Shown: in pieces, positions 18,001-26,727 of the stretch | Position numbering within the stretch: position 1 is the first letter of the stretch | Layout: each line of letters opens with the position of its first letter | Assembly (NCBI GenBank): GCA_019057795.1 | Contig: JAHLWS010000074.1 | Location: 21,725 to 85,724 of the forward strand | From: Promethearchaeota archaeon | GTDB taxonomy: Archaea > Asgardarchaeota > Lokiarchaeia > Sigyniarchaeales > SOKP01 | DNA length: 64,000 bases | Direction of reading: 5' to 3' | The notes under the pieces: model-generated | Databases searched by the model: none | Told to the model about the DNA's origin: nothing | What the model saw: the letters and a program-made list of their open reading frames with translations, nothing else | Program-made: the position numbers and the translations under genes

Positions 18001-21000
18001 GTTGAAGATAATTATATTTATTTCAATAATAAGTCAAGAGGTCAAGCAGGTTATATCGACCCCGATAGTGAAATTCAACTAACTTATAAATTTAAACTTC
18101 AACCTGGATTACTTGATAGAAAACATTTTATGATAATTACCTATCCGTGGACGAATGTTTTTGAAACTGTTTTTGATCCAGTCTTAGGTGACGAACAATT
18201 AACTTATAGAGAAAAATATAGAAAATTAAGCGGAGGCTCCATAATTACGCCTTTTGAATATAGCCTTTCTATTAATACGAAATATACCCTTTACTTAAGT
18301 TATCGCTTAAATCAGAGAGAATATTACGAAGAACGGTTTGAGATAAAATCCGAGTACTATGACAGCGCTGAAGGCGGCTACGTGTATAAATTTATTTCCC
18401 AAGAGCTCGATAATTACATCGATGTGCTTGAGGATGAAAAAGGGGATTCTGTTAACGTCTTTTATTTCGATGCTCAAGGCAAAATGATATTCTTAGACGC
18501 TTCTCATTACAAAGTTACTATTGGTTCGAGACAAATAGTTATTAAAAACGATGGAAACGAATTAGTAGCTTCACACGGAGAATTTTACGTGTCCTTTATC
18601 TCGGACTACAACGATAAAGAACTTTTAAATTATCGCTTTTCTTACGACCCCGCAACGGATATAACAGCAACCTTAGATGTAAATTATTGGGATGTTATTG
18701 ACGCAGAGGGTATAGGCGTTATTCCAAATTTAGACGCGCCTTACTTCATGAACGAAGGAGAGACCACTCTGCAAAACGTTGTGTGTCAAGCTTCTCAAAT
18801 TGCTGCGTATCTTAGCGAAGGAACCAAATTAGAATTTAATTTAGAAGCAGAATTACAGGGATACGACCAACAATTGCTTGATGGAATACGCGATGGCAAC
18901 TATTCAGCGCTCTATATTGATACAAATATTAAAAACATAGATAGTTTAGATAATCTTACTATTGAACTCTACGACTCTTCAGGTATAATGTCTGAATTTT
19001 CTCAGAACATGACCAGAGATGAGTTGATAATGTACGACTACAACATCAAAATTAACTTGCCAACAGATACAAATACGCTAAAAAAGATTAGACTCGTTCC
19101 ATTTTTCAGATCAGATAACGAATATAACGCGGATAATACTATAGGCATTAGCAGAATTCAAGCAATGGTCTGGGATAATGAGCTTGTTTCCTTCATGGAA
19201 GACGATCAAGAGTATATGCACGTGAATTTAGAGCACGATTTAAAGACAGATATAAGCGGATACAAATTAGCTTACATTTATAACGATAAATTACAATACC
19301 TCGCCTACCCTGACGGTGTTTCGATTACATATACCAAGGATATGGATATATACACTTTACATATTCCAAGCGTCTATCTTAACCCTGACACGAACGAAAC
19401 TACGAGATTTCTGGAAGGGCAAGAAATTGTTTTGCGATACAATTCGCCCGTAAAGAAAGGCATAGCTGTCGGTATTGGTAAATTATACTTTGAGAACAAA
19501 GGATATAATTACGACTCGCATCCAGATATTCCTAAAGCAGAATTATTACTGGTTAACGCTAATTCTTCGGATACCAACACTTACGCTTACTCCGAATTTA
19601 TTAACGATTATTATTATCAAGCCCCAATACAGATAACTCCGTTTGATACCGAATATAACGGCAAATATAAAGCTATAAAGATCGATTTGAATATATCCGC
19701 TTTATTAGAAGCAGAAGGTCGTTTTGAACTAGATCTCAGTCATATCGTCTTTTCGGTACCGAATCCTTCTTACGAATTAACCATTAGTGAAGTACTTATC
19801 TTGGAAGAATCGTACAAACCAAACTTACAATATGGAAGTATGGACGAACGGGTATGGCAATATACCGAGGTCGAGATGTTTACCGCAAGCGCTAATCCGG
19901 AAGAGGATTCTTATCAATTAGCCCTAGAAAACGCCCCGTTATTCTATCCTGATACGGAATGGTTAGATTATCTCAATATTTTTGACGAGGATGGCAACTA
20001 CTATACAGCAGGAATCACAGGAGACGACCATCAATTACATTTCGAACCTTCAACTAACACGTTTACTTGGAACCCATCGTTTAACCAGTACCCCGAATAT
20101 TTCGGCATGGAATTCGAAGAGCCGTTATCGATTGAGCCTAATAAAACGCTTTATTTCGGATACGTCACCAATACCTCTTGGGCAGAACCGATCCTAATCG
20201 AAGCGGAGAACATTGATCTCGATTCTATTCGCGTAATTTACGATTATAACTATCTACTGAAACCGGAGTTTTACGATTGGTACGCTACATTGAACCTTAG
20301 TGCCCAACATTCCTACGAGAATATCGCGTATTCCTTTAAAGAAGAATCCGAATATAAGGTTGTTCAGTATTATTACGAGGAGTTTACCGTATATAGCGAC
20401 GCTTCTCAATACACCCATACGTTTGATATAGGCGGGCTTTCTTTTGAAAACGATTTTGTCAACTTAAGCGTGTTTAAAGTGGTTGGTTTAACTCCCACTT
20501 TAGAAACCGAAATTTTGACAAATAACGACAATTTTTCGATTAAATTTAATGCAAATACGAAAGAATTAAATATAACAGATTTGAACTTAGAAAACGGTTT
20601 ATTGAATGTTTTTGATCAAATTACTGCTATTTTAAATTATTCATACGGTCCAATTTCTAGCTTTTCCGAGATTTATTTATCGCCCGAATTTAACATTACT
20701 TACTTAACCGATCCGGAAGAAACCTTCTTTAGCAATGTCGATATCGATTATAACTATCGATCAAAATCGGGCACAGCTCTATTTGGAGAAGGTTCTGCAA
20801 CCATTAATAGCGACGATACTTCATTTGTTCCTATTGATTTCTGTCGAAATCCCGATATGAGCACCGATTATCAATTAAACGGCTACGGTTCGGAGTTATT
20901 TGATAATTTTGAGATTTACCAAGACGAAAGCTCTATAATCTACGTAGCAGACATAGATATGGACGGGGAACCTGACTATAAGCACACGATCGATGTAGAC

Positions 21001-24000
21001 AAAGACGGAAAGATCGATGTTATTAGATACGGCCTTGACGATCCGCAGGGTTCCGGTGAGATTTATTGGCATACGGTTATTCAAGATTTTGAAAGTCGAG
21101 AAATTAAAGTAAAGCGAGAATTAGAAGAAGAGAAAAGAACCGAATGGTTTGACATAGATGACCGCGCATTTGCCTATTACGATTTTAATGTTTTGAAATT
21201 ACTATCAATTGTACTTGGATTACCTTTGTTATCGTATCATATTGCCAAAATGATGCTTCCCGACGTAGACTATTGGGCTCAAAAATCTATTCAGCAATTA
21301 GTCCAGAAACAGGAGTACGTAAAATCTTCCTTCTACAGCGTGACGATTGATAACGACAGGGATGGCTACACCGATTCTCAGATAAATTACGAGAAAACAG
21401 ACGTTAACATATATTACGATATTAGCGAATATAAGAAAACAATTATTGCTGCCAAGCATCAAGATATCGTTACCTATTTAGGAGAGTACATTGCCAAAAG
21501 TATAAGTTCCTTATTCACGGGCTCCCGAGACGATCCGATTTTTAACGACCAGTTAACCGAAGCCCATCTCGACTCTTCCGATTTTGGCTCTTGTAATTTA
21601 TATACCCAGATGAATGCAGCTGTTTTGAACGCGACATACAGAAAATTCTCTGAATATACCCTCTCGTCTTATATCGATACACTTGAGCGCTCCACATTGA
21701 CCGTAATCGGCTGGAACGAAGGAGAGATCGAAGAGCAAAGGATTTATACGGACGATTTTGAGAACGGAGAGATTGAAAATGCGGACGACTTTTTCTCGAG
21801 CTTATCGGCAGAGCATTCGGTCACCGACATTGACACGGGACAAGAAGTTACCGTTGATTTCGACTCAGAATTTCCATACACTCATCCAGCTAATATTAGT
21901 TGGGATTGCGAAACATGGGGTCCCGATAACGTTCCTATTAAATACGACTCCTTGCAGGTGATAGGAGAAGATTATTATTATGCTACAAATAAATTCGAAA
22001 AAGAAATTATTATTAGAATTCCGAATCGATTCTCGTTATACAACGATTTTGGTAAAGTTAGTAAGTTCAGCGTGGAAGACGGCGGTTGGGTTGAGTTTAA
22101 AGTTAAAGGTATGCTTATAACCCCTCCCGATGGTCAAGTATATTATACTTCCGATGTCGATTCCTTTGTTTCCGATTCAGCAAAAGTTAGCGGGTTTTAC
22201 TTCTACGTGGATTCTGATTTGAATGGATTTTTTGAAACAGTTTATATTCTAAACGATTACTATACTTTGGATGCTTCAGGTACTCCAGTATATACCGTTA
22301 TGTCAATAGGAATGAATTACGATGGTATTCACGATTTTGCACCCTACGAACGATTATACGACAGAGAGCTCGTAGTCTCTAATTTCGAGACGTTGACGCA
22401 AGAATCCGTCATGTTTGGAAGCGATTGGATTTACAATTTCAGGCACTTAAAGGACGAAGATCTTTTGAAAGAAACCGAATCTAAATTGGAAGAAAACAAC
22501 TTAAAACCAAAAGACCAAATATTTGAGATTTACAAACTCGTACAAATGAGCGAGCAAAACAGCGAATTTTCCGAGTTATTCTACGAAATTAGGCACAAGA
22601 CTTATTCAACCGCGTGGGAGCAATATAAAGAGCAATTAATAGGAGATATTGCCGAACAAGTGTTCATGTCGGTCACTGCCTCCCTTCTTAGCGCGACGGT
22701 GGAAGCCATCCTTACCGGAGCCACATTTGGTTTCGGATGGCCAGCTGCTAAAGCTGCTGCGACTTTAACTTATATGGGAGTCTATACTTTAATGACTAAA
22801 TTTTACGTCGACATAGACCTCGCCAAAGCAGAAGCTGAAAAGCGCTCTCAATCGTTCTACTCGGTTTCGAGCGAGACTCGTGAGCCTACTTCCCTTAACG
22901 AAAAAAACGCCTTGGATAGGGTTCTCGGCGATAGCATGGCGGCAGCACTTATAGGACATCCTGGCGGATATTACACCGAGGTGAGTGGAGGAGAACCGGG
23001 TAATATGTATACAGGTCAGCTACTAGTAAGTCCTCCCAATCTTTTACGCATGCTTTATTCGTTTGAAGGCTTTTTAGATTTACTTTGGGAAAACCTCTGG
23101 AGCATGGGAGAATCGGACCCCGATGTTTACGCCGCTCTCGATTTTGACGACATTAATTTGGATTACTTTTTACTCACTAGCGAATTACCCTCTTACAATC
23201 AGAACCCCTATTACACCTACGAGAACGCGGACGGTATTTTTGATTTGTACAACATGTATGCCCTAAACACCTTAGGCTACCTCGAAACTCAAGTAAGTCA
23301 AGCTTCTAACGGGCAGTACGACGCAATTCGAGCGACCTGCATAGACGGAAGACCACAATACGAGTTTATTAATAGCACCTTGTACCAAGCAGTAAGACCG
23401 CAAAGCGTGTTATATAGACCGATCGTGTTAAGCCAAGAAAGGTACGACCAACTACAACCAGCGCCCGGTAGTTTAGTAGTAAAAGCCCGATGTAAAGATT
23501 ATAGCAACACTATCGGAATAGACGCTTACGCAATGGGCGATGTGGAGCGCGAGGTGTACGCGGCAAAAGTTCCGCTCAACGACAACGGTTTTGAGTACCC
23601 TATTCGACACATTTCAATTGACGTGGTAAAGTACAACATTTACACCGGCTTCAGTTATTTTGTTAAGGGTCTTATCGTGAACGAGTCGGATTATTCTATC
23701 GATCTTGGCAACCTCTATTTCGCGAAATCCATCGAAGCGATCGTATCGGAAAAACATAGCGGGTTCGAAGACTTTTTAAGCTACGCGTTAGCACACGAAA
23801 TAATAGAATCGAAAATTTACTTTAACATTCACATAGTTTTTGACGTGTTTATCCCCGACACCACTGAAGAGACAAGCAGGTTGGCTTTAGCCCAAGCAAC
23901 ATCCCATACAATCATGGATTATTTTAATCAGTACGTTTTTGCGGAAGTTTCGGCTAATTCTATTTCAGAGATTGCCTACACAGAGACTATGACTTTCTGG

Positions 24001-26727
24001 TCTACTTTAATCAGCGCTCCCCTCGTGTATTTCGGCTCCTGGGCTATAAAAGGCACGGATAAGATGATGGGCGAGGCATCAGTAAAGTTAATTAAAGCGG
24101 GGGAAATAACTAGAGGACAAGCGATTAAACAAATGCTACTTAAATCATTTGCCGGCATGGCTCTAAGCCCCATTAAAGAAGTATTTGAAGAAATCATTAA
24201 AGACGGGTTTACTGAAGCGTTAGCAGAGAATCTCATCGACATGGCGGGAGGAACGGACGACTTAGGTTTCTGGGTCTCTTCCTTTATTACTTCCAGAAGA
24301 GAAACTACGGGAGCGTTAGGACAATTAGCGCTCGGAGACGCCAGCGTAGCTTTCGGGGACGCCAACCTAAAGACAAAGCTTTCCCTTATTAGCGCGAGGA
24401 TATCGGGGGACGCAAACGCCATCGCAGAGATCACAGCGAGCGTTCAGCAGAACGTAGAGCAAAAGCAGGCAGCTGCGGAGGTAAAACGGCAACAAATGAA
24501 ATCGTGGCAGAAAATGCTAAGTTCCGGATTCTTTAAGGGACTTCTTATGGTGCTTCCCGCGGCTCTTTACGGCTCGTTTAGTTTTGCCGCGTTAAAGGGT
24601 CTTAACAACATGATCGAGTCCACCCAAAGCGCGATACCGAAAGCGTACGCGAAATATAAGTCCGAAGTCCAAGCTTACAGGAAAGGAAAATTGCAGAAGA
24701 TGGTCGGAACGCAAGACGCTTTAATAAACAATTTGCAAGAATATACGAAGAAACCCGCGGAATTAGAAGCTGCCAAACCCGAGATCAACGAGAAATACAA
24801 AGCCACCCAAGATACCGAAAGAGATAACCCTCCTTTAGCGGCATTTCTTTCCAGTCTTAACCCCAATCCAAAGACAGAATCGAAAAAGAGTCTTGCTAAC
24901 AAGTTTTACGAGATTCTTTCCAGCACTTATTTTGAATCTACAGACCAATTTGACGATTCCCAACCTATCGGTGAGGATACTCAAACAAGTAGGATTCAAG
25001 TGGTCGAAAAGAAAGCAGAGACAAGCGATCTCGAAATTTCAATTTCTATCGGTGACGATTTTGAAGGATTATTCCCTGAACTCGACAAGGATGCGATTAA
25101 TTACATTTACTCAAAGTTGTTCGATCCTGAATACGACCAAAACAAGCCTAAAGACGTGTTAGGACAAATAAATTATCGCTGTAGTTTAATTTCAGAAGCA
25201 AGGCAAATCTTAAAATCTACAAAGTATTACGGTTTAGATGTACTTATTGACGAGATAATTAATCCTTACGTTGTAACTATTCTTGAGAACAAGTTTAGTA
25301 AAGGAGAGGAATTTACGAAATTAGAAAGGATAATAATGGATGTTGCAAGCTTTTATATGGGGGGCGCTCAAATTAAACATGATGGAGGGTACGATCTAGA
25401 TACTATAAAAGAATACGAAGAAGAGACGGGTAAGAAAGCGTTTTTGAGCAATAGCCCAACAAAAACTTTTAAAGAATGGTTTAGTGCAAGACAAGTAAGA
25501 GATGAAATCCGGGAGAAGATCGATGGACTTGTAAAGACTGTGGTTAACGATTATATGGAAAGTCTTGATAAGAGCAAACTTAAATTTCGCCAACTACATT
25601 TTCAGGATTATGTAAGCGATCCATCGGATGTAGATAAAATATATAACAACAGAAAAAAGTATTGTTGGACCGGCATAGTCTATCGTATTACGGAATTTAA
25701 AGAAGAGAACGGAAAAATAGTTGAAGGAAGGAAGATATACGGGTTTTCCATGGACAATTTGGAGAGTCGATGGGAGCATTACAAGGAGCAAGCTTTAGAT
25801 CCCAATAGAGATAATCAACCCATACACGATGCTATTTTAGCTATAGCTCAAAAATATGATGAGGGTGAAATTGATAACGATATTGACGATTGGTTTAAAA
25901 GGGAGGTTGTTGAAGTTCATTGGGATGAGAATTCAATGCGTCAAAGAGAGAGGGATTGGATTAAAAAAGATAATACGCAAGACCCCGCTGTAGGATTCAA
26001 CAAACAGCCCGGGGGCGAAGGAGGTCCTAAAATTCATATTCCGATTAGGTTATTAGCTGAGTACATTGCAGAAGGTTTAAAGGTTTCTGAGATTAGCAGC
26101 GAATTGGAAAATCATGGAATATATGTAGCATTAACTACAGTCTATAAAAGAATTAATGAGCGTTATGGAAGTTTTATTGAAGCTAGAAAAAGATTTTTAA
26201 AACCCGTTATAGAACAACTAATTAAAGAAGGATATGAAAAACAAGAAATTGCGGGATGTTTAAAAACTAAATCTAAACATTTTTTCAAAACTTGGATACC
26301 CAAAATGTTCGAAGTCTCTTCTTATACCGCATTGCGAGAACAATATTTACTGGAAATGATATCGGCGATATTAGAGACAGGGATTCAAAGCTTCACTTAT
26401 GAAAAGATACAGTCGTTTTTACCGCAATTTGGAAAACACGAAGTAAAACGCTTGATTATAAATGAGTGGAAAGGGATTATAAAAGCAAATATTCAATTTG
26501 GGAGGGAGATTGCTATTTACTTATTTAGAAGAGGAATGTCGGACGAATATATTTTAAAGGTGCTGGGATTTTCTGAAAGCTATATTTCTAAATCATCAAA
26601 TCGAAAGCGTGCATTTAAAAGGTTATTCAACGGAATGACCGCCGACGAAGCCCGTGAACATTTTACTTCTGAATATAAAAACGTAGAAGATCATTTCAAA
26701 TGGTATTCGGATTTAGATAATTATTAA
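1..26727 (+). CDS. Giant (>=8908 aa, 5'-truncated) surface/secreted multidomain protein with LamG/Ig/jelly-roll modules, hydrophobic helices and a C-terminal GIY-YIG nuclease plus HTH repeats; candidate polymorphic toxin
   Basis: Frame 1 is open from base 1 (NFGTTRTVWNLGG...), so the TTG at 82 is not the true start. Acidic, aromatic-rich and rich in N-x-S/T sequons for most of its length. LamG motifs are present, and the C-terminus has GIVY...IYG...RW...RERDWI...GFN. Confidence 0.9.
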   Translation, partial: NFGTTRTVWNLGGTHTLNPIPYLQQPNLNTFIPIKNSNDIHLNPITIDNLNEDTIKDGVIKLALISYVLPSNGSSFSFDRADPFTPISVSQSIDLVESLFIGESVQLMHPDSSIETSLELDSGTYRADLSGLDIGEIVAVKGIYVDPDSVIQQYPIEYFWITDSNELAFNSPMKHLFSNVSIEYVPQLPLTENYPAEFPGFYYLPNSTIVGSTTFTEPYFVTNVEDDTTFFGTYVHPDIPVGYSLSHNEYGWYVVFDQSVSNPRGAVRFAKINNTYISIFSIKDTLAYKYNILDSASDFAGGTLNLILKAGFNDVFYSELSQVACNDYKVKITFFKRDINGIETNIGTVYKLLDSSQLGFHSYNLEISLSEITEGIGLLVDVISRDSESELYVTVESIISNSRVDGNLFKGFFAQEIVEASLIIDTPDSELLFDDMKVETPYIEIPQLSIPLTKIAKATYQFDLSSLKYNFDFDITEIRAEGVPLSQQDYEFDLSQNIVVLKGDYREYSGLLFADLSYKAFEWNDGFVSTLEPISFNFATNYTDKIAKYLVFDINFDSAGIPGYQLEKVDTASGRVVMAEESKDATSLLLYLYNFIEDKWEFIDFVVYDTYLGSFTYVADRLFTTFEDYFNSTGTSEFEVKLMLAVDETVGDCFSSSVGFIIDQISANIYFKSPNVEHSVRPEVVFDVDLTKYFTDSNIYVDEVQLKLDYISKIDSSFAFSEHALIEENYNFYVLNKFLEFEEVELIDRSIILSRNALNDLLLYDSNNEKYFVQIKIEYDWNCILEMNIEFDSRLEIKSSLQLLDYALTVSYTEYEITRISAQETRSPYELTAIYAPGYVQNATGFVILETDNIVDIGTLAGFLRNADSRQRLMLRQQLYYQFSESTDGPIALLLDQTYTDINLRFVSPLGELTRPQDFICDNTYFQFIVDHEVVSVELLFFNGTDYEQVGFFEQSFLSQILYEYGWNNISGATEKNTGDFVQIKIILTDIFNNKNEIIYEFLADFDSPSPTISIANGVQSFETAPANPLTGISFESGEDMAIARWEFKDGSGTIATDTYGTNHGTLYNMEDADWQEGILEFNGTDEYIQVANDNYLQFGYSDSFSIMAWIKTDSDGTIIRSEGSVSGAYGLAVQSGKVNFLIEDQDYNLLSFTGKTLVNDNEWHQIIGIRDTSTNNLIICVDGNYDYSITDTTVSSLDTGQDIFIGTTKIGTQFYDNFSGSIDDICIFNYAISSDVVSNLFFFQIESDKMENAWFRFDEGIGNIAHDKLGIDAYIYGEQNWIGGSSARWGDYAVDFNPQEYVPQQGLDEDFDVIEGSSDWQGDLSQQNGDYIKFTSSGDQFIGDQELWDEGFSQSESHLQNSFLPDAYSSFQSWNPLYMTNGFPTTSVVNDWIDWSLINNNQAYTSSSWNGLGNFNSHLNYGTYTDVPAQDLVPSGDFDMINYENSDWAGDLTTNDDYTNFTSIPDGFDYDHANHEPYYENLWNATTSEEAGHYPGTYSFRGENGKTDLDIDFVDSLNTGGSVEIVSEYQNHKSVLHLTETITYRGFYHFFDSNQISGTMEWWSLAPQNDDYCIVNIMEGGSLRMRIAFDDDGGSANIEYNDGAWHNIMAYSINTWYHFKIEFDCSTDTWDIYINGVLKINDASFSGDASYIDRIDYDNELDAESYYDAFGFSWDSNYTLGDNWHYDYHQGSQTFENYNTSSYGDYYGTYSFTDDTAGGNPTGWGISETGGTVNVVAEKDNHKKVLELYDDDAENRVSALNSFTIQTDATIEFWWAHEASLSYHHYLHLRIREGGTERVRILFSYQAVGQIVSHDGSAYVSIVTGLSSNTFYHIKLVLDDSANTFKCYVDGVDKGTFDYFSNSIVGIDSIYMLTRGGNSGGAFTHWFDAFGYSGDNYEIGDNINPYGILPELKNDGWNIDAGAGSSVRITGEDTSHKKNLELLLPVDSYAGLYNDFDSGQTSGTVEFWFKTTDYWDPNQMHVEDGSSADSLYFWVDEGQFRYTDDSGTHNIVACANNVWHHVKLSFNLTTGSPTTNWWACWINDVYYGSYVDGFNGDPSAMDRTMFKSDGHVTPHWMYIDAVGYSWDPNYEIGDNYLFNIHYKNHIYAPGGTNAAWTMDPLYMQSGFPDKTVNEGFSGWTPNSDSDYTTVSWDGNGNFDNAVKKRNVASVTHDASWGSGAMSNFYTDNDQYYNIYRSTYNNLDSGSYRLVSDNGNTLTDVIPSDQGNYQEQRDDTGWSQYTDDSKVRRFRYTRQTTLPGWTLEVYDEYSVSASVSNPPSGKSWVAQDLSIEFREATWKIYGGSGSWIYHQAYHDTSGWVTLGSRQLSTSDSYTSYSYNKNPNDYMDESKNVRMRVKIVVPCANYGVFVERAKFQYDIDLCGVLVHWKANEVDPRINFESGLFNGAREFRLFFQGITSQGIADLYVLEGEYWVKRISDIGSASWKTVSNVLIYNVNDIMLELGNAGDVQTLTIDYLYLYCEDTGSIHQAQLGKTITDPFLNQYDSYGNYQKKYDVTVSFEYKFAKAVNDLSYYSAWVDIPGTTDSLPATGVWTTKEYTFEFDSTSTSGFDIVFRTKNGYLDLQNMNYNFKFKCLDTSGHIRLFQSIEADYPYQDTLSQFVKDNGHFYLDFTYNFVTSDDDLTYYNSYDRTYKLEVIATIKADGAWQTAIPLNQTSTPTSGTYRFDVRGYMDSQGWSTFEDIKLEFVVSGDPSSLTVSDVSLFDYRAWRPAELEFTIDANMPDLTADDSLDRVELFYRYDTDPIIDTFGLYVYNYITSEWDLINGEQPTSGFFESSFNLTSDHYDASHNMQFKINGTYGVVFEFGKQFDFLLDKFYVEYDWTRTSGEIYADLINTIYDPLLNRYDSFDDYKKLYNISINFDYQFNTQDANYGDFAKFYVETTEGSFEIFDLTKDGQVNNLQCSFEFNSTSRADFDVKFRISNGDLDLNNFQIEVTFKCFKDDVSGDRLLEQIFEADYEGSLTQEEKEIANFYCDIYYNFTTVDDGLSYVNSYGGNDKLEIIYGVKADGQWFSQVYSTSISESKDPLTFNVRDFMDQQGVFVFEDFNATFVLSGDQSALNVSQLRFYDHEIDPAVVHFTVETPVNINAPAEGIELHYALRTNITQQDRFNLKVKIWNYATSQWDLISYLYGTDIPDSFEKFIFVLDSCYCNPDNNIVNLSLYAENYVDLFEIHLDLLKTVVVDYVEAPILIDTGLTPFTFASWIRLDSLTDTVSLYGEYNDLTSDARNHIYVNADGSIYFAQSLSSAATSNAGLMTTGTWIHVVVIKSGDEIRFYKNGELFGTPVIYNEDYSGPTPTKTGIGSRFADSTWYNDPLDGSIDDLRLFNQSLTLTEIKWIFGFGQGRYKSLDRLSGTEFQFVPLEEYRIIDLTTGITSEWITFHTPQIKKLDDLGDLPANFSIEYRVFDFAGNVAYNTTYNNGFKNILFSREIEIPISWTGTEENKLDLNVVGQERELFIEKNPQFGDVSSLDVYINGFRYGTATLNGDNYRLSFGSDNTKNTLIAYSDSLMSNNIYSNINPLNHISWEVREDDSFTVVKHVLVDSDIVIINPLSYNASNALDLNHLYDREFGLPNFVRMKQAYYYDYNITTDESELRYLDYGFDYGIDSDGQVIFPELSVVHELYNNLTTVKDECVYFEYSASEFSNQLSLNNADGFFINFTMPALYYGHTTIDTLVVSFNDFLGNSFAKKFFDLDLREYFLDNVKDDYAEDVFGLGKMMVIPLYINLRELAFSNPNNPFDLTLLESISFTISDSERWPGSFALDFEDQQYEVTNLPYQRAGIKDLKLFNLISDSIEPDENGFVTSEIIFRTPDYYNFFGKSELKIKRMNIDITDVKLFDNGQEINSYREVEYSDFIEAYMMHDNSFAQIPLGDLITLPVSLVNDTSLEPLAFGAMYYITKYDKNAPTGYFHKYYYSKFEVPKKLGVFDLFFNSQGTPLHNITIGNNDIKFTLNVTQEELSNYSPIYLENYVDELEYGHSLILKGAVLDNDQYIEEDKEVHKYEYIEALDGETVHYLNLVSPFGDPNFIDREEFAIYYINDNLEIIPLYTNLSGDYFKQSDILDKNPVISYIDNRFALNIYWNEDSDSFIDYDTNILISYKVLKGRPISPMSYSSFDSYGNNKRQNLIEIPFARYDMITRSWITEEDFIEQFPISKMLLIKEVTSIDITIEGPEFNEASVFRTGIIALEGVYVNKSYSNSFKLENSTKYSCTIDQDGKLVISGLNYTEGDVFKVAYYAYDPVKVIHSLNRPNSTIDYIKITNGTGFEYEFILNQDYKLSVDGYQIFFLDLCNTILKSGNFSIYDTFEIKYHAPLSRKLDLSQNLLLMLQDSSGNEIPIDSVPIDNLGFFEYEQQLRIDSPLSIPLGGGRTLVHMLLSYLPLNVFNKSSGQLFNITYEDQDVGKIYGIKESNKWVKYFTITTIPEKVKLTMVEDPTQNMIINQKFYEEREYLFNYNPLEALEKDEGYTKVMIDALAREDYEFTYKLTDFEDKPINNSIVWLHIGFMPKSETKFLNERTRINYDDSPIYFESLGTEEVTFRGPGEGANKMFGRPLTYETDNSITNLTAYGPYAWIYGVTDEFGEVTFDISFDNEYIRDFINIFGSIEGINSIDDMVLYTRAFNTYFDWDEFAIDTPNQYICSENGQIYDGSNRIENYDFTDLVLQDSAYAEGIIRLHRHDIALGLNDYLVYNLPDSDINAQYDPITLHLYLTEATPIPTGATPTIESLTKVYSSSELEPTSYNILEDDYFYYASIEFYTPSGHLVKTLYKEIKVNESYDSGTITIGNETVKEILDMLGPGISAMRVYVFETEYYKSSPLIGIPIEVRPPNWIKFGEKNTQIDLIDPFVSAWGTAYNNEEEMPFESIYPVLMGAIWVDPDFNGPTDEEERSIQDYIGINLDCTIYNEDGTTSTFPLRDNIMLRPGNNDGVMTFNAPLGPEEHFLMGLQCDLNLSFNIDFNKDQIYEDQRDVEIFLLDLRLEANPSTKDPITTWSIYDDGFSSGEITVLTSSESISPPESGVKYLGGTENGQIFGQEISFLYYNDSLDYGIESDSELLSLLALTEITALKVVGIKDGSEYEFVQGTDWTMPYYPSGILYNDSIIRFSGTNIPDEGTEFSIVYKLKFDFESKSFGKITLGYTNNYNESSIELQLPDGFLPDSDEAVAPMFTRFSDNFTGDGTQTQFIMSYGLSGVSQWDGNFVIYNEEELISQFGAFDEGVSSGHPTITFTVKPPPAQSKINVTYGVKSQYDLSYGFQKINKSYSDSIRLMSNDDTSPQIIDEADSGLSTRVLDNSSLYISLDNSEEKTTLKLLQVPLLFAPELNLTFTFDQIVLDYIESFDNDFNNLTIEFKYITKDGYYEFYSDPKIIPLNYSEISPDIIGNSYSILYNKDLQPIYDMVGTDSIDIEITLYQAGNSVNYAPYIILEEFEYLSDTHIVEMYDRMPRDYYGNMDIDAVINTPHYFQVFSKPLVDCEWGDSPFNLIDGSEVTVGLKGLPNSSLVSLDYDGETYGIDYWGSEKTLPVNLENFFMIPNLGMYTDTYNIEETSYQDGYLDLYYGSGTEIDGEKLYTSTIYMDYESSPVADYRSSILDNTPTSWATTFDFADKFLTTYEMEVEGRVFYHQVFDLDTDINTTSEMNDIFPDYNTNIYFGLQLPSDLDIDEIREIGLPYSYALSIQGFPVGDYKDEYCFALPTDSGDFNPTTDPYLLESDTEYALEFDEYGAPYILFFKPVGDLSTYTDAQNKIMIDYWANHEFIDNRDYYIHENPIDTFISQIEWDYSYVDTDNFNLHPDFTYDTSFTVNYYALEWEIFNEDYIKDGDDIFTFQQREFYNISVLYTGDTSTDEFSVQYIVPEGQYLEDHIIFPTIYALAQIDDDEETMRVIEIYNSLLQNYISQNAPDSYNYTVDFAEIETYINTYFPSYQLVENSFMYITTEYNSTLLRYPMGHTPFNYDYLGPDHYAYHIALYINGEFIAYSNETLFNDYVLKVEDNYIYFNNKSRGQAGYIDPDSEIQLTYKFKLQPGLLDRKHFMIITYPWTNVFETVFDPVLGDEQLTYREKYRKLSGGSIITPFEYSLSINTKYTLYLSYRLNQREYYEERFEIKSEYYDSAEGGYVYKFISQELDNYIDVLEDEKGDSVNVFYFDAQGKMIFLDASHYKVTIGSRQIVIKNDGNELVASHGEFYVSFISDYNDKELLNYRFSYDPATDITATLDVNYWDVIDAEGIGVIPNLDAPYFMNEGETTLQNVVCQASQIAAYLSEGTKLEFNLEAELQGYDQQLLDGIRDGNYSALYIDTNIKNIDSLDNLTIELYDSSGIMSEFSQNMTRDELIMYDYNIKINLPTDTNTLKKIRLVPFFRSDNEYNADNTIGISRIQAMVWDNELVSFMEDDQEYMHVNLEHDLKTDISGYKLAYIYNDKLQYLAYPDGVSITYTKDMDIYTLHIPSVYLNPDTNETTRFLEGQEIVLRYNSPVKKGIAVGIGKLYFENKGYNYDSHPDIPKAELLLVNANSSDTNTYAYSEFINDYYYQAPIQITPFDTEYNGKYKAIKIDLNISALLEAEGRFELDLSHIVFSVPNPSYELTISEVLILEESYKPNLQYGSMDERVWQYTEVEMFTASANPEEDSYQLALENAPLFYPDTEWLDYLNIFDEDGNYYTAGITGDDHQLHFEPSTNTFTWNPSFNQYPEYFGMEFEEPLSIEPNKTLYFGYVTNTSWAEPILIEAENIDLDSIRVIYDYNYLLKPEFYDWYATLNLSAQHSYENIAYSFKEESEYKVVQYYYEEFTVYSDASQYTHTFDIGGLSFENDFVNLSVFKVVGLTPTLETEILTNNDNFSIKFNANTKELNITDLNLENGLLNVFDQITAILNYSYGPISSFSEIYLSPEFNITYLTDPEETFFSNVDIDYNYRSKSGTALFGEGSATINSDDTSFVPIDFCRNPDMSTDYQLNGYGSELFDNFEIYQDESSIIYVADIDMDGEPDYKHTIDVDKDGKIDVIRYGLDDPQGSGEIYWHTVIQDFESREIKVKRELEEEKRTEWFDIDDRAFAYYDFNVLKLLSIVLGLPLLSYHIAKMMLPDVDYWAQKSIQQLVQKQEYVKSSFYSVTIDNDRDGYTDSQINYEKTDVNIYYDISEYKKTIIAAKHQDIVTYLGEYIAKSISSLFTGSRDDPIFNDQLTEAHLDSSDFGSCNLYTQMNAAVLNATYRKFSEYTLSSYIDTLERSTLTVIGWNEGEIEEQRIYTDDFENGEIENADDFFSSLSAEHSVTDIDTGQEVTVDFDSEFPYTHPANISWDCETWGPDNVPIKYDSLQVIGEDYYYATNKFEKEIIIRIPNRFSLYNDFGKVSKFSVEDGGWVEFKVKGMLITPPDGQVYYTSDVDSFVSDSAKVSGFYFYVDSDLNGFFETVYILNDYYTLDASGTPVYTVMSIGMNYDGIHDFAPYERLYDRELVVSNFETLTQESVMFGSDWIYNFRHLKDEDLLKETESKLEENNLKPKDQIFEIYKLVQMSEQNSEFSELFYEIRHKTYSTAWEQYKEQLIGDIAEQVFMSVTASLLSATVEAILTGATFGFGWPAAKAAATLTYMGVYTLMTKFYVDIDLAKAEAEKRSQSFYSVSSETREPTSLNEKNALDRVLGDSMAAALIGHPGGYYTEVSGGEPGNMYTGQLLVSPPNLLRMLYSFEGFLDLLWENLWSMGESDPDVYAALDFDDINLDYFLLTSELPSYNQNPYYTYENADGIFDLYNMYALNTLGYLETQVSQASNGQYDAIRATCIDGRPQYEFINSTLYQAVRPQSVLYRPIVLSQERYDQLQPAPGSLVVKARCKDYSNTIGIDAYAMGDVEREVYAAKVPLNDNGFEYPIRHISIDVVKYNIYTGFSYFVKGLIVNESDYSIDLGNLYFAKSIEAIVSEKHSGFEDFLSYALAHEIIESKIYFNIHIVFDVFIPDTTEETSRLALAQATSHTIMDYFNQYVFAEVSANSISEIAYTETMTFWSTLISAPLVYFGSWAIKGTDKMMGEASVKLIKAGEITRGQAIKQMLLKSFAGMALSPIKEVFEEIIKDGFTEALAENLIDMAGGTDDLGFWVSSFITSRRETTGALGQLALGDASVAFGDANLKTKLSLISARISGDANAIAEITASVQQNVEQKQAAAEVKRQQMKSWQKMLSSGFFKGLLMVLPAALYGSFSFAALKGLNNMIESTQSAIPKAYAKYKSEVQAYRKGKLQKMVGTQDALINNLQEYTKKPAELEAAKPEINEKYKATQDTERDNPPLAAFLSSLNPNPKTESKKSLANKFYEILSSTYFESTDQFDDSQPIGEDTQTSRIQVVEKKAETSDLEISISIGDDFEGLFPELDKDAINYIYSKLFDPEYDQNKPKDVLGQINYRCSLISEARQILKSTKYYGLDVLIDEIINPYVVTILENKFSKGEEFTKLERIIMDVASFYMGGAQIKHDGGYDLDTIKEYEEETGKKAFLSNSPTKTFKEWFSARQVRDEIREKIDGLVKTVVNDYMESLDKSKLKFRQLHFQDYVSDPSDVDKIYNNRKKYCWTGIVYRITEFKEENGKIVEGRKIYGFSMDNLESRWEHYKEQALDPNRDNQPIHDAILAIAQKYDEGEIDNDIDDWFKREVVEVHWDENSMRQRERDWIKKDNTQDPAVGFNKQPGGEGGPKIHIPIRLLAEYIAEGLKVSEISSELENHGIYVALTTVYKRINERYGSFIEARKRFLKPVIEQLIKEGYEKQEIAGCLKTKSKHFFKTWIPKMFEVSSYTALREQYLLEMISAILETGIQSFTYEKIQSFLPQFGKHEVKRLIINEWKGIIKANIQFGREIAIYLFRRGMSDEYILKVLGFSESYISKSSNRKRAFKRLFNGMTADEAREHFTSEYKNVEDHFKWYSDLDNY
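3121..3723 (+). other. Intact LamG/concanavalin A-like domain in the giant protein
   Basis: ARWEFKDGSGTIATD...LEFNGTDEYI...FSIMAWIK...NDNEWHQI...FSGSIDDICIFNYAIS. Confidence 0.9.
4480..6288 (+). repeat. Three ~190-aa lectin-like beta-sandwich protein repeats
   Basis: Shared motifs YxGTYSF, HK(S/K)xLxL, SGT(M/V)E(W/F)W, W(Y/H)H(F/I/V)K, DA(F/V)G(F/Y)S(WD)xNYxxGDN. Confidence 0.85.
7450..9600 (+). repeat. Tandem duplication of a ~360-aa block (7450-8526 and 8530-9600)
   Basis: TITDPFLNQYDSY/TIYDPLLNRYDSF; FKC..RL..IEADY; KADGAW/KADGQW; VVSGDPSSL/VLSGDQSAL; YNYITSEWDLI/WNYATSQWDLI. Confidence 0.9.
25666..26025 (+). other. GIY-YIG endonuclease-like domain near the C-terminus of the giant protein
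   Basis: WTGIVYRIT...KIYGFS...LESRWEHY...RQRERDWIKK...GFNKQPGG follows the GIY / YIG / Arg / Glu / Asn order of I-TevI-type catalytic domains. Confidence 0.8.

Follow-up and report, generated by a model that had tools for sequence, protein, structure and literature searches.

A GIY-YIG nuclease fold with four helix-turn-helix units at the exchangeable C-terminus of a giant Asgard archaeal protein

The window analysed here is a 64,000-nt stretch of a Promethearchaeota archaeon genome (GCA_019057795.1, contig JAHLWS010000074.1, positions 21,725 to 85,724 of the forward strand). It contains the 3´ part of a giant open reading frame (ORF) of 13,767 amino acids (aa), whose C-terminal tip combines, in its last ~350 residues, a GIY-YIG nuclease domain with four helix-turn-helix (HTH) units. 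A gene for a leucine-rich repeat (LRR) protein lies directly downstream. In the giant protein family the body is conserved, the last 450–970 residues are exchanged at two conserved junctions, and the GIY-YIG tip travels together with the LRR gene behind it. Because tips vary at fixed junctions, orphan modules exist, partner genes are tightly linked and the cassette was exchanged recently, we read tip and LRR gene as a polymorphic-toxin-like effector cassette, recruited from homing endonucleases and paired with an LRR inhibitor, a reading that we consider evenly balanced between right and wrong. G000 denotes the genome under study, other G numbers denote related genomes, L numbers denote loci or contigs, and P numbers denote representative proteins. 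The tip contains the following elements:

25591 to 25668, plus strand: helical lead-in 5´ of the nuclease domain, kept in stand-alone family members
25669 to 26010, plus strand: GIY-YIG nuclease domain (model residues 27–140) with Tyr, Tyr/Gly, Arg, His, Glu and Asn motifs, assigned by AF2 model, profile and superposition
26032 to 26670, plus strand: four HTH units in the AF2 model (R1, 26032–26178; R2, 26179–26328; R3, 26329–26481; R4, 26482–26670)
26671 to 26727, plus strand: conserved C-terminal end (…WYSDLDNY) and TAA stop codon, from the sequence

An earlier note on this DNA had proposed a GIY-YIG domain with the motifs GIVY, IYG, ESRW, RERDWI and GFN, followed by about four HTH-like repeats and fused in frame to a surface protein. 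Translation of 22501–26727 places all five motifs in frame with the giant ORF. The catalytic-type codons are the Tyr of GIVY (25681–25683), the Tyr and Gly of IYG (25738–25740 and 25741–25743), the Arg of ESRW (25768–25770), a His (25777–25779), the Glu of RERDWI (25948–25950) and the Asn of GFN (25999–26001). Four of these residues are almost invariant in the family: Tyr31 in 48 of 49 sequences, Arg60 in 49 of 51, Glu120 in 54 of 55 and Asn137 in 55 of 55 (96–100%). A profile built from 58 homologues matches the I-TevI catalytic domain (PDB 1LN0) over the whole domain and motif by motif, with an E value of 1.9e-5, and PHROG homing-endonuclease families are matched at 8.9e-6 and 4.7e-5. The Pfam GIY-YIG family (PF01541; gathering threshold 22.6 bits) is matched by 15 of the 58 homologues at E<=0.01, including P0015 (27.5 bits) and P0046 (24.6 bits), and many of the 58 match HTH families. 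The tip sequence itself gives nothing against PF01541 at E<=1 and no significant family in Pfam or NCBIfam. Its own Pfam score lies below the threshold, and membership in the superfamily is therefore argued from the family profile, from transitive hits and from the fold.

The fold was modelled with AF2. The model from the single sequence was not usable (pLDDT 45), and a good model (pLDDT 92, pTM 0.74) required the 58-sequence alignment. Model residues 27–140 superpose on 1LN0 with a Z score of 9.6 and a root-mean-square deviation of 2.3 Å over 90 of 92 residues (VIA-align), and less closely on T4 EndoII (Z 6.7) and on the GIY-YIG N-domain of UvrC (Z 5.7). The superfamily core, a three-stranded sheet with flanking helices in the order beta-beta-alpha-alpha-beta-alpha, is present in the model, and the top BFVD matches are phage GIY-YIG and intron endonucleases. 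A Foldseek search of the PDB with the multi-domain model returned no match at E<=0.001. A profile hit to the 'CAP repeat' of 8VD6 was set aside; 8VD6 is a de novo designed repeat protein. On profile and model, 25669–26010 encodes an I-TevI-type GIY-YIG nuclease fold, the fold whose absence the earlier note had named as a refutation.

The repeats behind the nuclease domain were likewise recovered, as four helical units of ~50 aa that each form three helices in the model. R3 and R4 together superpose on the double-HTH DNA-binding domains of the AraC/MarA type with a Z score of ~10. The tip has the organisation by which homing endonucleases are recognised, a catalytic domain tethered to a separate DNA-binding module, here GIY-YIG plus four HTH units. 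It resembles T4 I-TevI (PDB 1LN0/1MK0; PHROG 7168 and 314) in its N-terminal catalytic domain of ~110 aa with the Tyr, Arg, His, Glu and Asn motifs and in the separate modular DNA-binding region with HTH units that follows. The two proteins share only ~16–18% sequence identity, and their DNA-binding regions differ: I-TevI has a zinc finger, a minor-groove helix and a single HTH, whereas the tip has four HTH units in tandem. The tip would presumably cleave DNA, perhaps with sequence specificity.

The exchange of tips was followed in an alignment of the giants, for which core and tip residues are numbered within the last 1408 aa. The following elements of the giant gene and its neighbour define the region:

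1 to 26727, plus strand: window part of the giant ORF, with the frame open from base 1 and ending at the stop codon at 26727
22501 to 24933, plus strand: conserved core, residues 1–811 of the last 1408 aa, common to all family members examined; GC content at third codon positions (GC3) 0.48
24934 to 25359, plus strand: pre-tip segment A, starting at junction 1 and common to the giants of G046, G018 and G050, to P0004 and to L039
25351 to 25365, plus strand: junction 2, motif FYMGG (...LERII.DVASFYMGG), from the alignment of giants
25381 to 25482, plus strand: mini-domain of ~30 aa directly after junction 2, from the sequence
26790 to 27710, plus strand: LRR partner gene (306 aa), with a ~140-aa N-terminal domain followed by LRRs, no transmembrane (TM) segment and no signal peptide

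The giant ORF starts at an ATG in upstream DNA of the same contig (G000:C74:7148), ends at window position 26727 and runs as a single frame without interruption. Fusion of the GIY-YIG and HTH modules to the C-terminus of a giant membrane or surface protein is thereby borne out. An intron or intein was considered and excluded: the frame is continuous, no Hint domain is present and the tip is terminal. The same fusion is found in other genomes, so that the splicing raised in the earlier note is not needed.

Relatives of the giant were gathered by a genus search with the 900 aa that precede the tip, which returned giants of 9,240–14,552 aa and two further paralogues in G000. Nine relatives match the reference up to residue ~811 (window 24933) and then diverge fully into at least six tip types of 240–970 aa; G000 itself has three paralogues with three tip types. 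Junction 1 (window ~24934) follows the motif ...NPNPKT..L.NKF, and tip types I and II part here. Four giants share ~145 aa more beyond this point and diverge after FYMGG. At junction 2, the 12,880-aa giant of G046 carries a divergent homologue of the GIY-YIG/HTH module (21% identity; hhalign probability 96%, E 2.6e-9), and the giants of G018 and G050 carry unrelated tips. The Met of junction 2 (ATG 25357–25359) also initiates the free-standing tip genes G051:C164, P0005 and P0079. The mini-domain behind it occurs in every tip of the GIY-YIG type that reaches the junction, free-standing tips included. P0027 is a fragment of a further member of the giant family, with a GIY-YIG tip of another subgroup, and the third giant paralogue of G000 (G000:C77:96494–101491, L031) has an open frame of 11,241 aa and a type II tip.

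Two resemblances among the other tips are recorded as impressions only. Types I (L030/L032/L035) and II (L031/L034/L036) have a short 'RHH … H..Y' near their C-termini that resembles nuclease toxins of the HNH/AHH type, with no Pfam or PDB-profile hit in its favour. The type V tip (L037, G018:C185) has the look of an S24/S26 beta-barrel peptidase, LexA-like or signal-peptidase-like, in its first ~120 aa past the junction, where Pfam gives nothing.

The LRR gene lies 62 bp downstream of the GIY-YIG tip type in all four contexts that are readable downstream (G000, L040, L041 and G051). The LRR genes are 81–86% identical wherever the tips are 66–82% identical, and in G046 a full-length LRR relative of 30% identity adjoins the tip of 21% identity. 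No LRR gene was found within 1.5 kb of the stand-alone nuclease loci (0 of 11). Type I tips are accompanied by a separate LRR family of 286 aa. Type II tips are followed by small Zn-finger genes in L031 and L036 and by an LRR gene in L034; L031 has a tandem pair of them (113 aa each, with 80% mutual identity and Cys-rich, Zn-finger-like ends), and in G020:C114 a relative is found behind the type II tip. PADLOC defence models match neither the GIY-YIG tip nor the LRR protein nor the other tips. We also observed a 5´-truncated copy of the LRR partner (G051:C221:18221–19000, L074 6228–7013) that covers residues 49–303 at 81% identity and has no adjoining tip.

Synonymous divergence (dS) was compared between the reference giant gene and L039. 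It is 1.49 in the core, 0.26–0.52 from junction 1 to the stop codon and 0.25–0.36 in the LRR gene. GC3 also changes at the junction, from 0.48 in the core to 0.31–0.33 in the pre-tip segment and tip and 0.29 in the LRR gene; it is 0.37 in the giant body, and the genes neighbouring the giant have 27–33% GC. From the drop in dS and the step in GC3, we conclude that pre-tip segment, tip and LRR gene were exchanged more recently than the cores diverged. The ratio of nonsynonymous to synonymous divergence (dN/dS) is 0.275 in the nuclease domain, 0.51 in the HTH array and 0.2–0.37 in the LRR gene. Tip and LRR gene are under purifying selection; these values indicate that nuclease domain, HTH array and LRR gene are all functional and that the HTH array evolves fastest.

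The same values bear on whether the tip is a catalytically dead DNA-binding tail, in which the GIY-YIG fold is a relic and only the HTH array works, for example as a membrane-tethered transcription regulator. Such a tail would agree with the lack of any Pfam GIY-YIG score for the tip sequence, with the displacement of the second Tyr by one residue and with the half of the tail that consists of HTH units resembling AraC/MarA regulators. The nuclease domain is nevertheless the most constrained part of the tip, and Tyr31, Arg60, Glu120 and Asn137 are all present at the conservation given above. A dedicated inhibitor-like partner gene would also be unexpected for a harmless regulator. We regard a dead tail as very improbable.

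Truncated and orphan copies of giant and cassette occur in G000 and in related genomes. One duplicated stretch lies in the window:

20888 to 24915, plus strand: stretch with 87% nucleotide identity over 4,029 nt to a 5´-truncated copy at G000:C66:22283–28382

This copy (L089/L030) is a 2,033-aa open frame, possibly starting at a TTG (C66:22313), with unrelated genes upstream. Its homology to the giant begins abruptly at giant residue 11,823 and ends at window 24915, which is junction 1; a type I tip and a different 286-aa LRR gene follow. In G051:C164, the tip is a free-standing ORF of 457 aa that starts from the junction Met; the LRR gene lies behind it, and no giant precedes it. Orthologues of its flanking gene in 13 other genomes have neither tip nor LRR gene within 1.5 kb. 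In two metagenome contigs, L041 and L042, all that is left of the tip is its final 153 aa, preceded by an unrelated gene. An intact LRR gene comes next in L041, and the L042 contig ends too soon past the remnant to show one. L039, a 5´-truncated copy homologous to reference residues 518–1408, has stop codons ahead of it; because of its position at the edge of a contig it may be an assembly chimera. Truncated and orphan copies of this kind could supply alternative tips.

The surroundings of the remnant in L042 (JABUBN010001399.1, 2871–6883) were observed separately. The remnant lies behind a short ORF that resembles the truncated N-terminus of another nuclease gene, and ~2.3 kb farther upstream, encoded on the other strand, is a P-loop ATPase of 409 aa. 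With an ATPase gene and a nuclease-like ORF near the remnant, the region may be a defence island.

The nuclease family is restricted to one lineage, and its free-standing members act as mobile homing-endonuclease genes. Among 1.8 billion proteins, an exhaustive HMMER search returned no more than 75 representative relatives, and the named homologues are from Promethearchaeota (Asgard, Loki-type archaea). The module is present in 13 of 24 genomes of the same genus and in 4 of 16 other genomes of the order. No related loci were found in the genome-contig and viral-contig collections, and a first metagenome scan gave no match. Most family members are proteins of 380–1,500 aa with unrelated N-terminal extensions, which include two Zn-ribbon classes. 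In a maximum-likelihood tree, midpoint-rooted and with G046 as a long branch, the giant-borne modules occupy at least three positions among the stand-alone forms.

The clearest mobile member is a paralogue in G000 itself (G000:C21:95474–97869, L007 974–3369), a 2,396-bp insertion of 26% GC exactly between porGD and porA. The insertion is present in 2 of 12 congeneric genomes (G000 and G009); in the other 10, porA follows porGD after 28–32 bp, in some with 97–98% identical flanking protein. This is the behaviour of free-standing homing-endonuclease genes. The paralogue has an in-frame TAA 64 codons upstream of its first ATG, and its GIY motif lies upstream of that ATG; with no canonical start codon ahead of the motif, translation may begin at a non-canonical codon, or the gene may be in decay. 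A free-standing position between conserved genes, with presence/absence polymorphism, is found for this paralogue; the giant-borne copy has neither such a position nor one in an intron or intein. The stand-alone homologues that the earlier note had suggested searching for do exist (G051:C164, P0005, P0079 and G000:C21). Its description of the tip as homing-endonuclease-like stands in that the family has mobile members, as the porGD–porA insertion attests; the idea of a single captured enzyme gives way to one allele of an exchangeable cassette system.

This mobility allows a purely selfish account, in which tip and LRR gene form a two-gene mobile module. The homing endonuclease would cut 'empty' or differently tipped giant alleles near the junction and be copied in by double-strand-break repair with the LRR gene as passenger, and its in-frame fusion would either be incidental or serve to borrow expression, perhaps from the junction Met. 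The 2.4-kb porGD–porA insertion of 26% GC in G000 and G009, not found in 10 of 12 congeners, is consistent with such a module. The top sequence and fold matches to phage homing endonucleases, the GIY-YIG/HTH modules in two of the four tips at junction 2, the free-standing tip that begins at the junction Met within a variable region and the drop of dS across the cassette point the same way. The Asgard element HeimM2 also couples an LRR protein with a homing-endonuclease homologue (PMC8813620). Yet the same junctions accept tips that are not nucleases (types I, II, V and VI), which argues for general exchange points rather than one homing site, and a homing enzyme translated only after 13,300 codons would gain little. 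The clearly mobile stand-alone members lack an LRR gene, whereas the giant-tip type has one in every readable context. An intact LRR gene (dN/dS 0.28–0.37 against the reference LRR gene) moreover persists beside the 153-aa tip remnant. We consider the selfish module rather unlikely.

The location of the tip depends on the membrane topology of the giant. The source genome is 4.95 Mb in size, with a GC content of ~30% around the giant gene. The N-terminus of the giant comprises ~300 soluble residues followed by five TM helices (aa 300–454; Kyte–Doolittle hydropathy (KD) 2.4–3.1), and the positive-inside rule would place the remainder beyond these helices outside the cell. Pfam recognises Laminin_G_3, Laminin_G_2, a sialidase-type carbohydrate-binding module (CBM) and the Ig-like Big_13 in the giant body, and detects no Rhs/YD, FHA, HINT, PAAR or LXG domain in the giant. 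Lectin-type, CBM and Ig-like are the only kinds of Pfam domain in the body, and a secretion module of a novel type could escape Pfam. The core contains two Gly/Ala-rich, moderately hydrophobic segments (22660–22734 and 24514–24594). Between extracellular body and tip there are three weakly hydrophobic segments, with KD of 1.6–1.8 against 2.4–3.1 for the N-terminal anchors. The density of N-glycosylation sequons does not separate body from tip (the body has 119, where 117 are expected). A scan for sigma-70 promoters and terminators gave no enrichment; such a scan is not meaningful for an archaeon.

If all three weak segments span the membrane, the tip would be cytoplasmic, and it could then be the output of a giant surface sensor: a nuclease held by the LRR protein and freed upon contact or attack to act on the cell's own or an invader's DNA, in defence, an abortive-infection-like response or signalling. 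Charged residues make up 32% of the tip, near the 31% of the cytoplasmic N-terminus and unlike the 21% of the body, and neither the partner LRR gene nor the free-standing tip genes encode a signal peptide or TM segment. The same features are seen in toxin/immunity pairs with a cytoplasmic immunity protein, however, and the sequon counts do not tell inside from outside. Polymorphic tips and orphan cassettes would be hard to explain for a purely internal output, and the lack of PADLOC matches for tip and LRR protein also speaks against defence. A sensor output seems to us distinctly unlikely.

The effector reading proposes the following course. The segment 25357–26724 would be the exchangeable C-terminal effector cassette of a membrane-anchored giant, with a nuclease recruited from homing endonucleases as a DNA-damaging effector, that is, a toxin. 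The HTH array may give it an affinity for DNA, and possibly a site preference, that a lone GIY-YIG domain would not have. The cytoplasmic LRR protein would bind and neutralise the nuclease as an immunity protein or inhibitor, and the Gly/Ala-rich hydrophobic helices before the tip may help its passage across the membrane into a neighbouring cell.

Several observations weigh against this course. Secretion, cleavage and delivery enter it as proposed steps only. The number of membrane passes between body and tip is uncertain given three segments with KD of 1.6–1.8, and with an odd number of passes the tip would end up in the cytoplasm of the producing cell. The free-standing tip genes own a start codon and may encode ordinary cytoplasmic proteins. 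An array of four HTH units is typical of homing enzymes with a specific site and unlike known toxin tips, and in both structure and sequence the tip is closest to phage homing endonucleases rather than to Tox-URI toxins. The second catalytic Tyr stands directly before the Gly, one position closer than in I-TevI. Neither Pfam nor PDB profiles match the other tip types, in which no toxin domain is recognisable. Partner genes track tips imperfectly, as different tips in L034 and L037 are followed by LRR genes of 50% identity.

The effector reading gains from a comparison with known systems. The traits by which polymorphic toxins are recognised, a shared body with unrelated C-terminal domains, a conserved junction motif and orphan or truncated modules, are all found here. 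Like CdiA-CT/CdiI, Rhs and WapA (PMC3482391), the system comprises a very large surface protein whose body is conserved and whose C-terminal domain varies from a conserved motif onwards. A gene that may be the cognate partner lies directly downstream, and, as in these bacterial toxins, truncated or orphan tip and partner modules lie elsewhere in the genome. Bacterial polymorphic toxin systems include the GIY-YIG toxins Tox-URI1/2 and the Imm-LRR immunity proteins (Zhang et al., 2012; PMC3482391), so that GIY-YIG (URI) nuclease and LRR immunity are both listed classes there. The present system differs in its Asgard host, in an unrelated scaffold that by Pfam lacks Rhs/YD, FHA, HINT, PAAR and LXG, in its two nested junctions and in a tip with a long HTH array that is closest to homing enzymes. 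We know of no archaeal route by which such tips are delivered.

The family resembles the I-TevI type in that members stand free between conserved genes with presence/absence polymorphism. The tip differs from I-TevI in being the in-frame C-terminus of a 13,767-aa membrane protein, neither intron-borne nor free-standing, and in its dedicated downstream LRR partner gene. HeimM2 of Ca. Heimdallarchaeum (PMC8813620) likewise has an LRR gene with a homing-endonuclease homologue and is mobile, inserted between conserved genes. It belongs to a different Asgard class, its endonuclease is described as of the rRNA-intron type and it has no giant fusion. Unrelated giant genes occur across Asgard archaea (Wu et al., 2022; PMC8813620). 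In the literature searched, we found no description of polymorphic giant proteins or GIY-YIG tips in Asgard archaea; this did not cover a survey by Makarova and colleagues in mBio in 2019, which reportedly treats archaeal polymorphic toxins.

More broadly, Loki-type Asgard archaea may own a contact-dependent effector system built on surface giants of 11,000–14,500 aa unrelated to any bacterial toxin scaffold, in which swappable tips, including DNases derived from homing endonucleases and possibly sequence-specific, would be delivered to neighbours and checked by LRR immunity proteins. Such a system would be an archaeal analogue of CDI (contact-dependent inhibition) and Rhs systems and of the toxin-derived teneurin architecture of animals. 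We put this forward as a tentative proposal that is more likely to fail than to hold. Asgard archaea are the closest prokaryotic relatives of eukaryotes, and very little is known of their dealings with neighbouring cells. If our preferred reading is true, the cassette would be a concrete, testable candidate, with the genetic grammar of contact competition set on a scaffold that has no detectable relation to Rhs, CdiA or LXG. The tip/LRR pair (457 and 306 aa) is small enough for direct biochemistry. Tethering to four HTH units may confine the DNase to selected sites; this would be unusual for a toxin, and such an enzyme could be of use as a modular DNA-targeting nuclease. Repeated recruitment of a homing-endonuclease family as a protein tip would link selfish DNA elements with systems of inter-cellular conflict.

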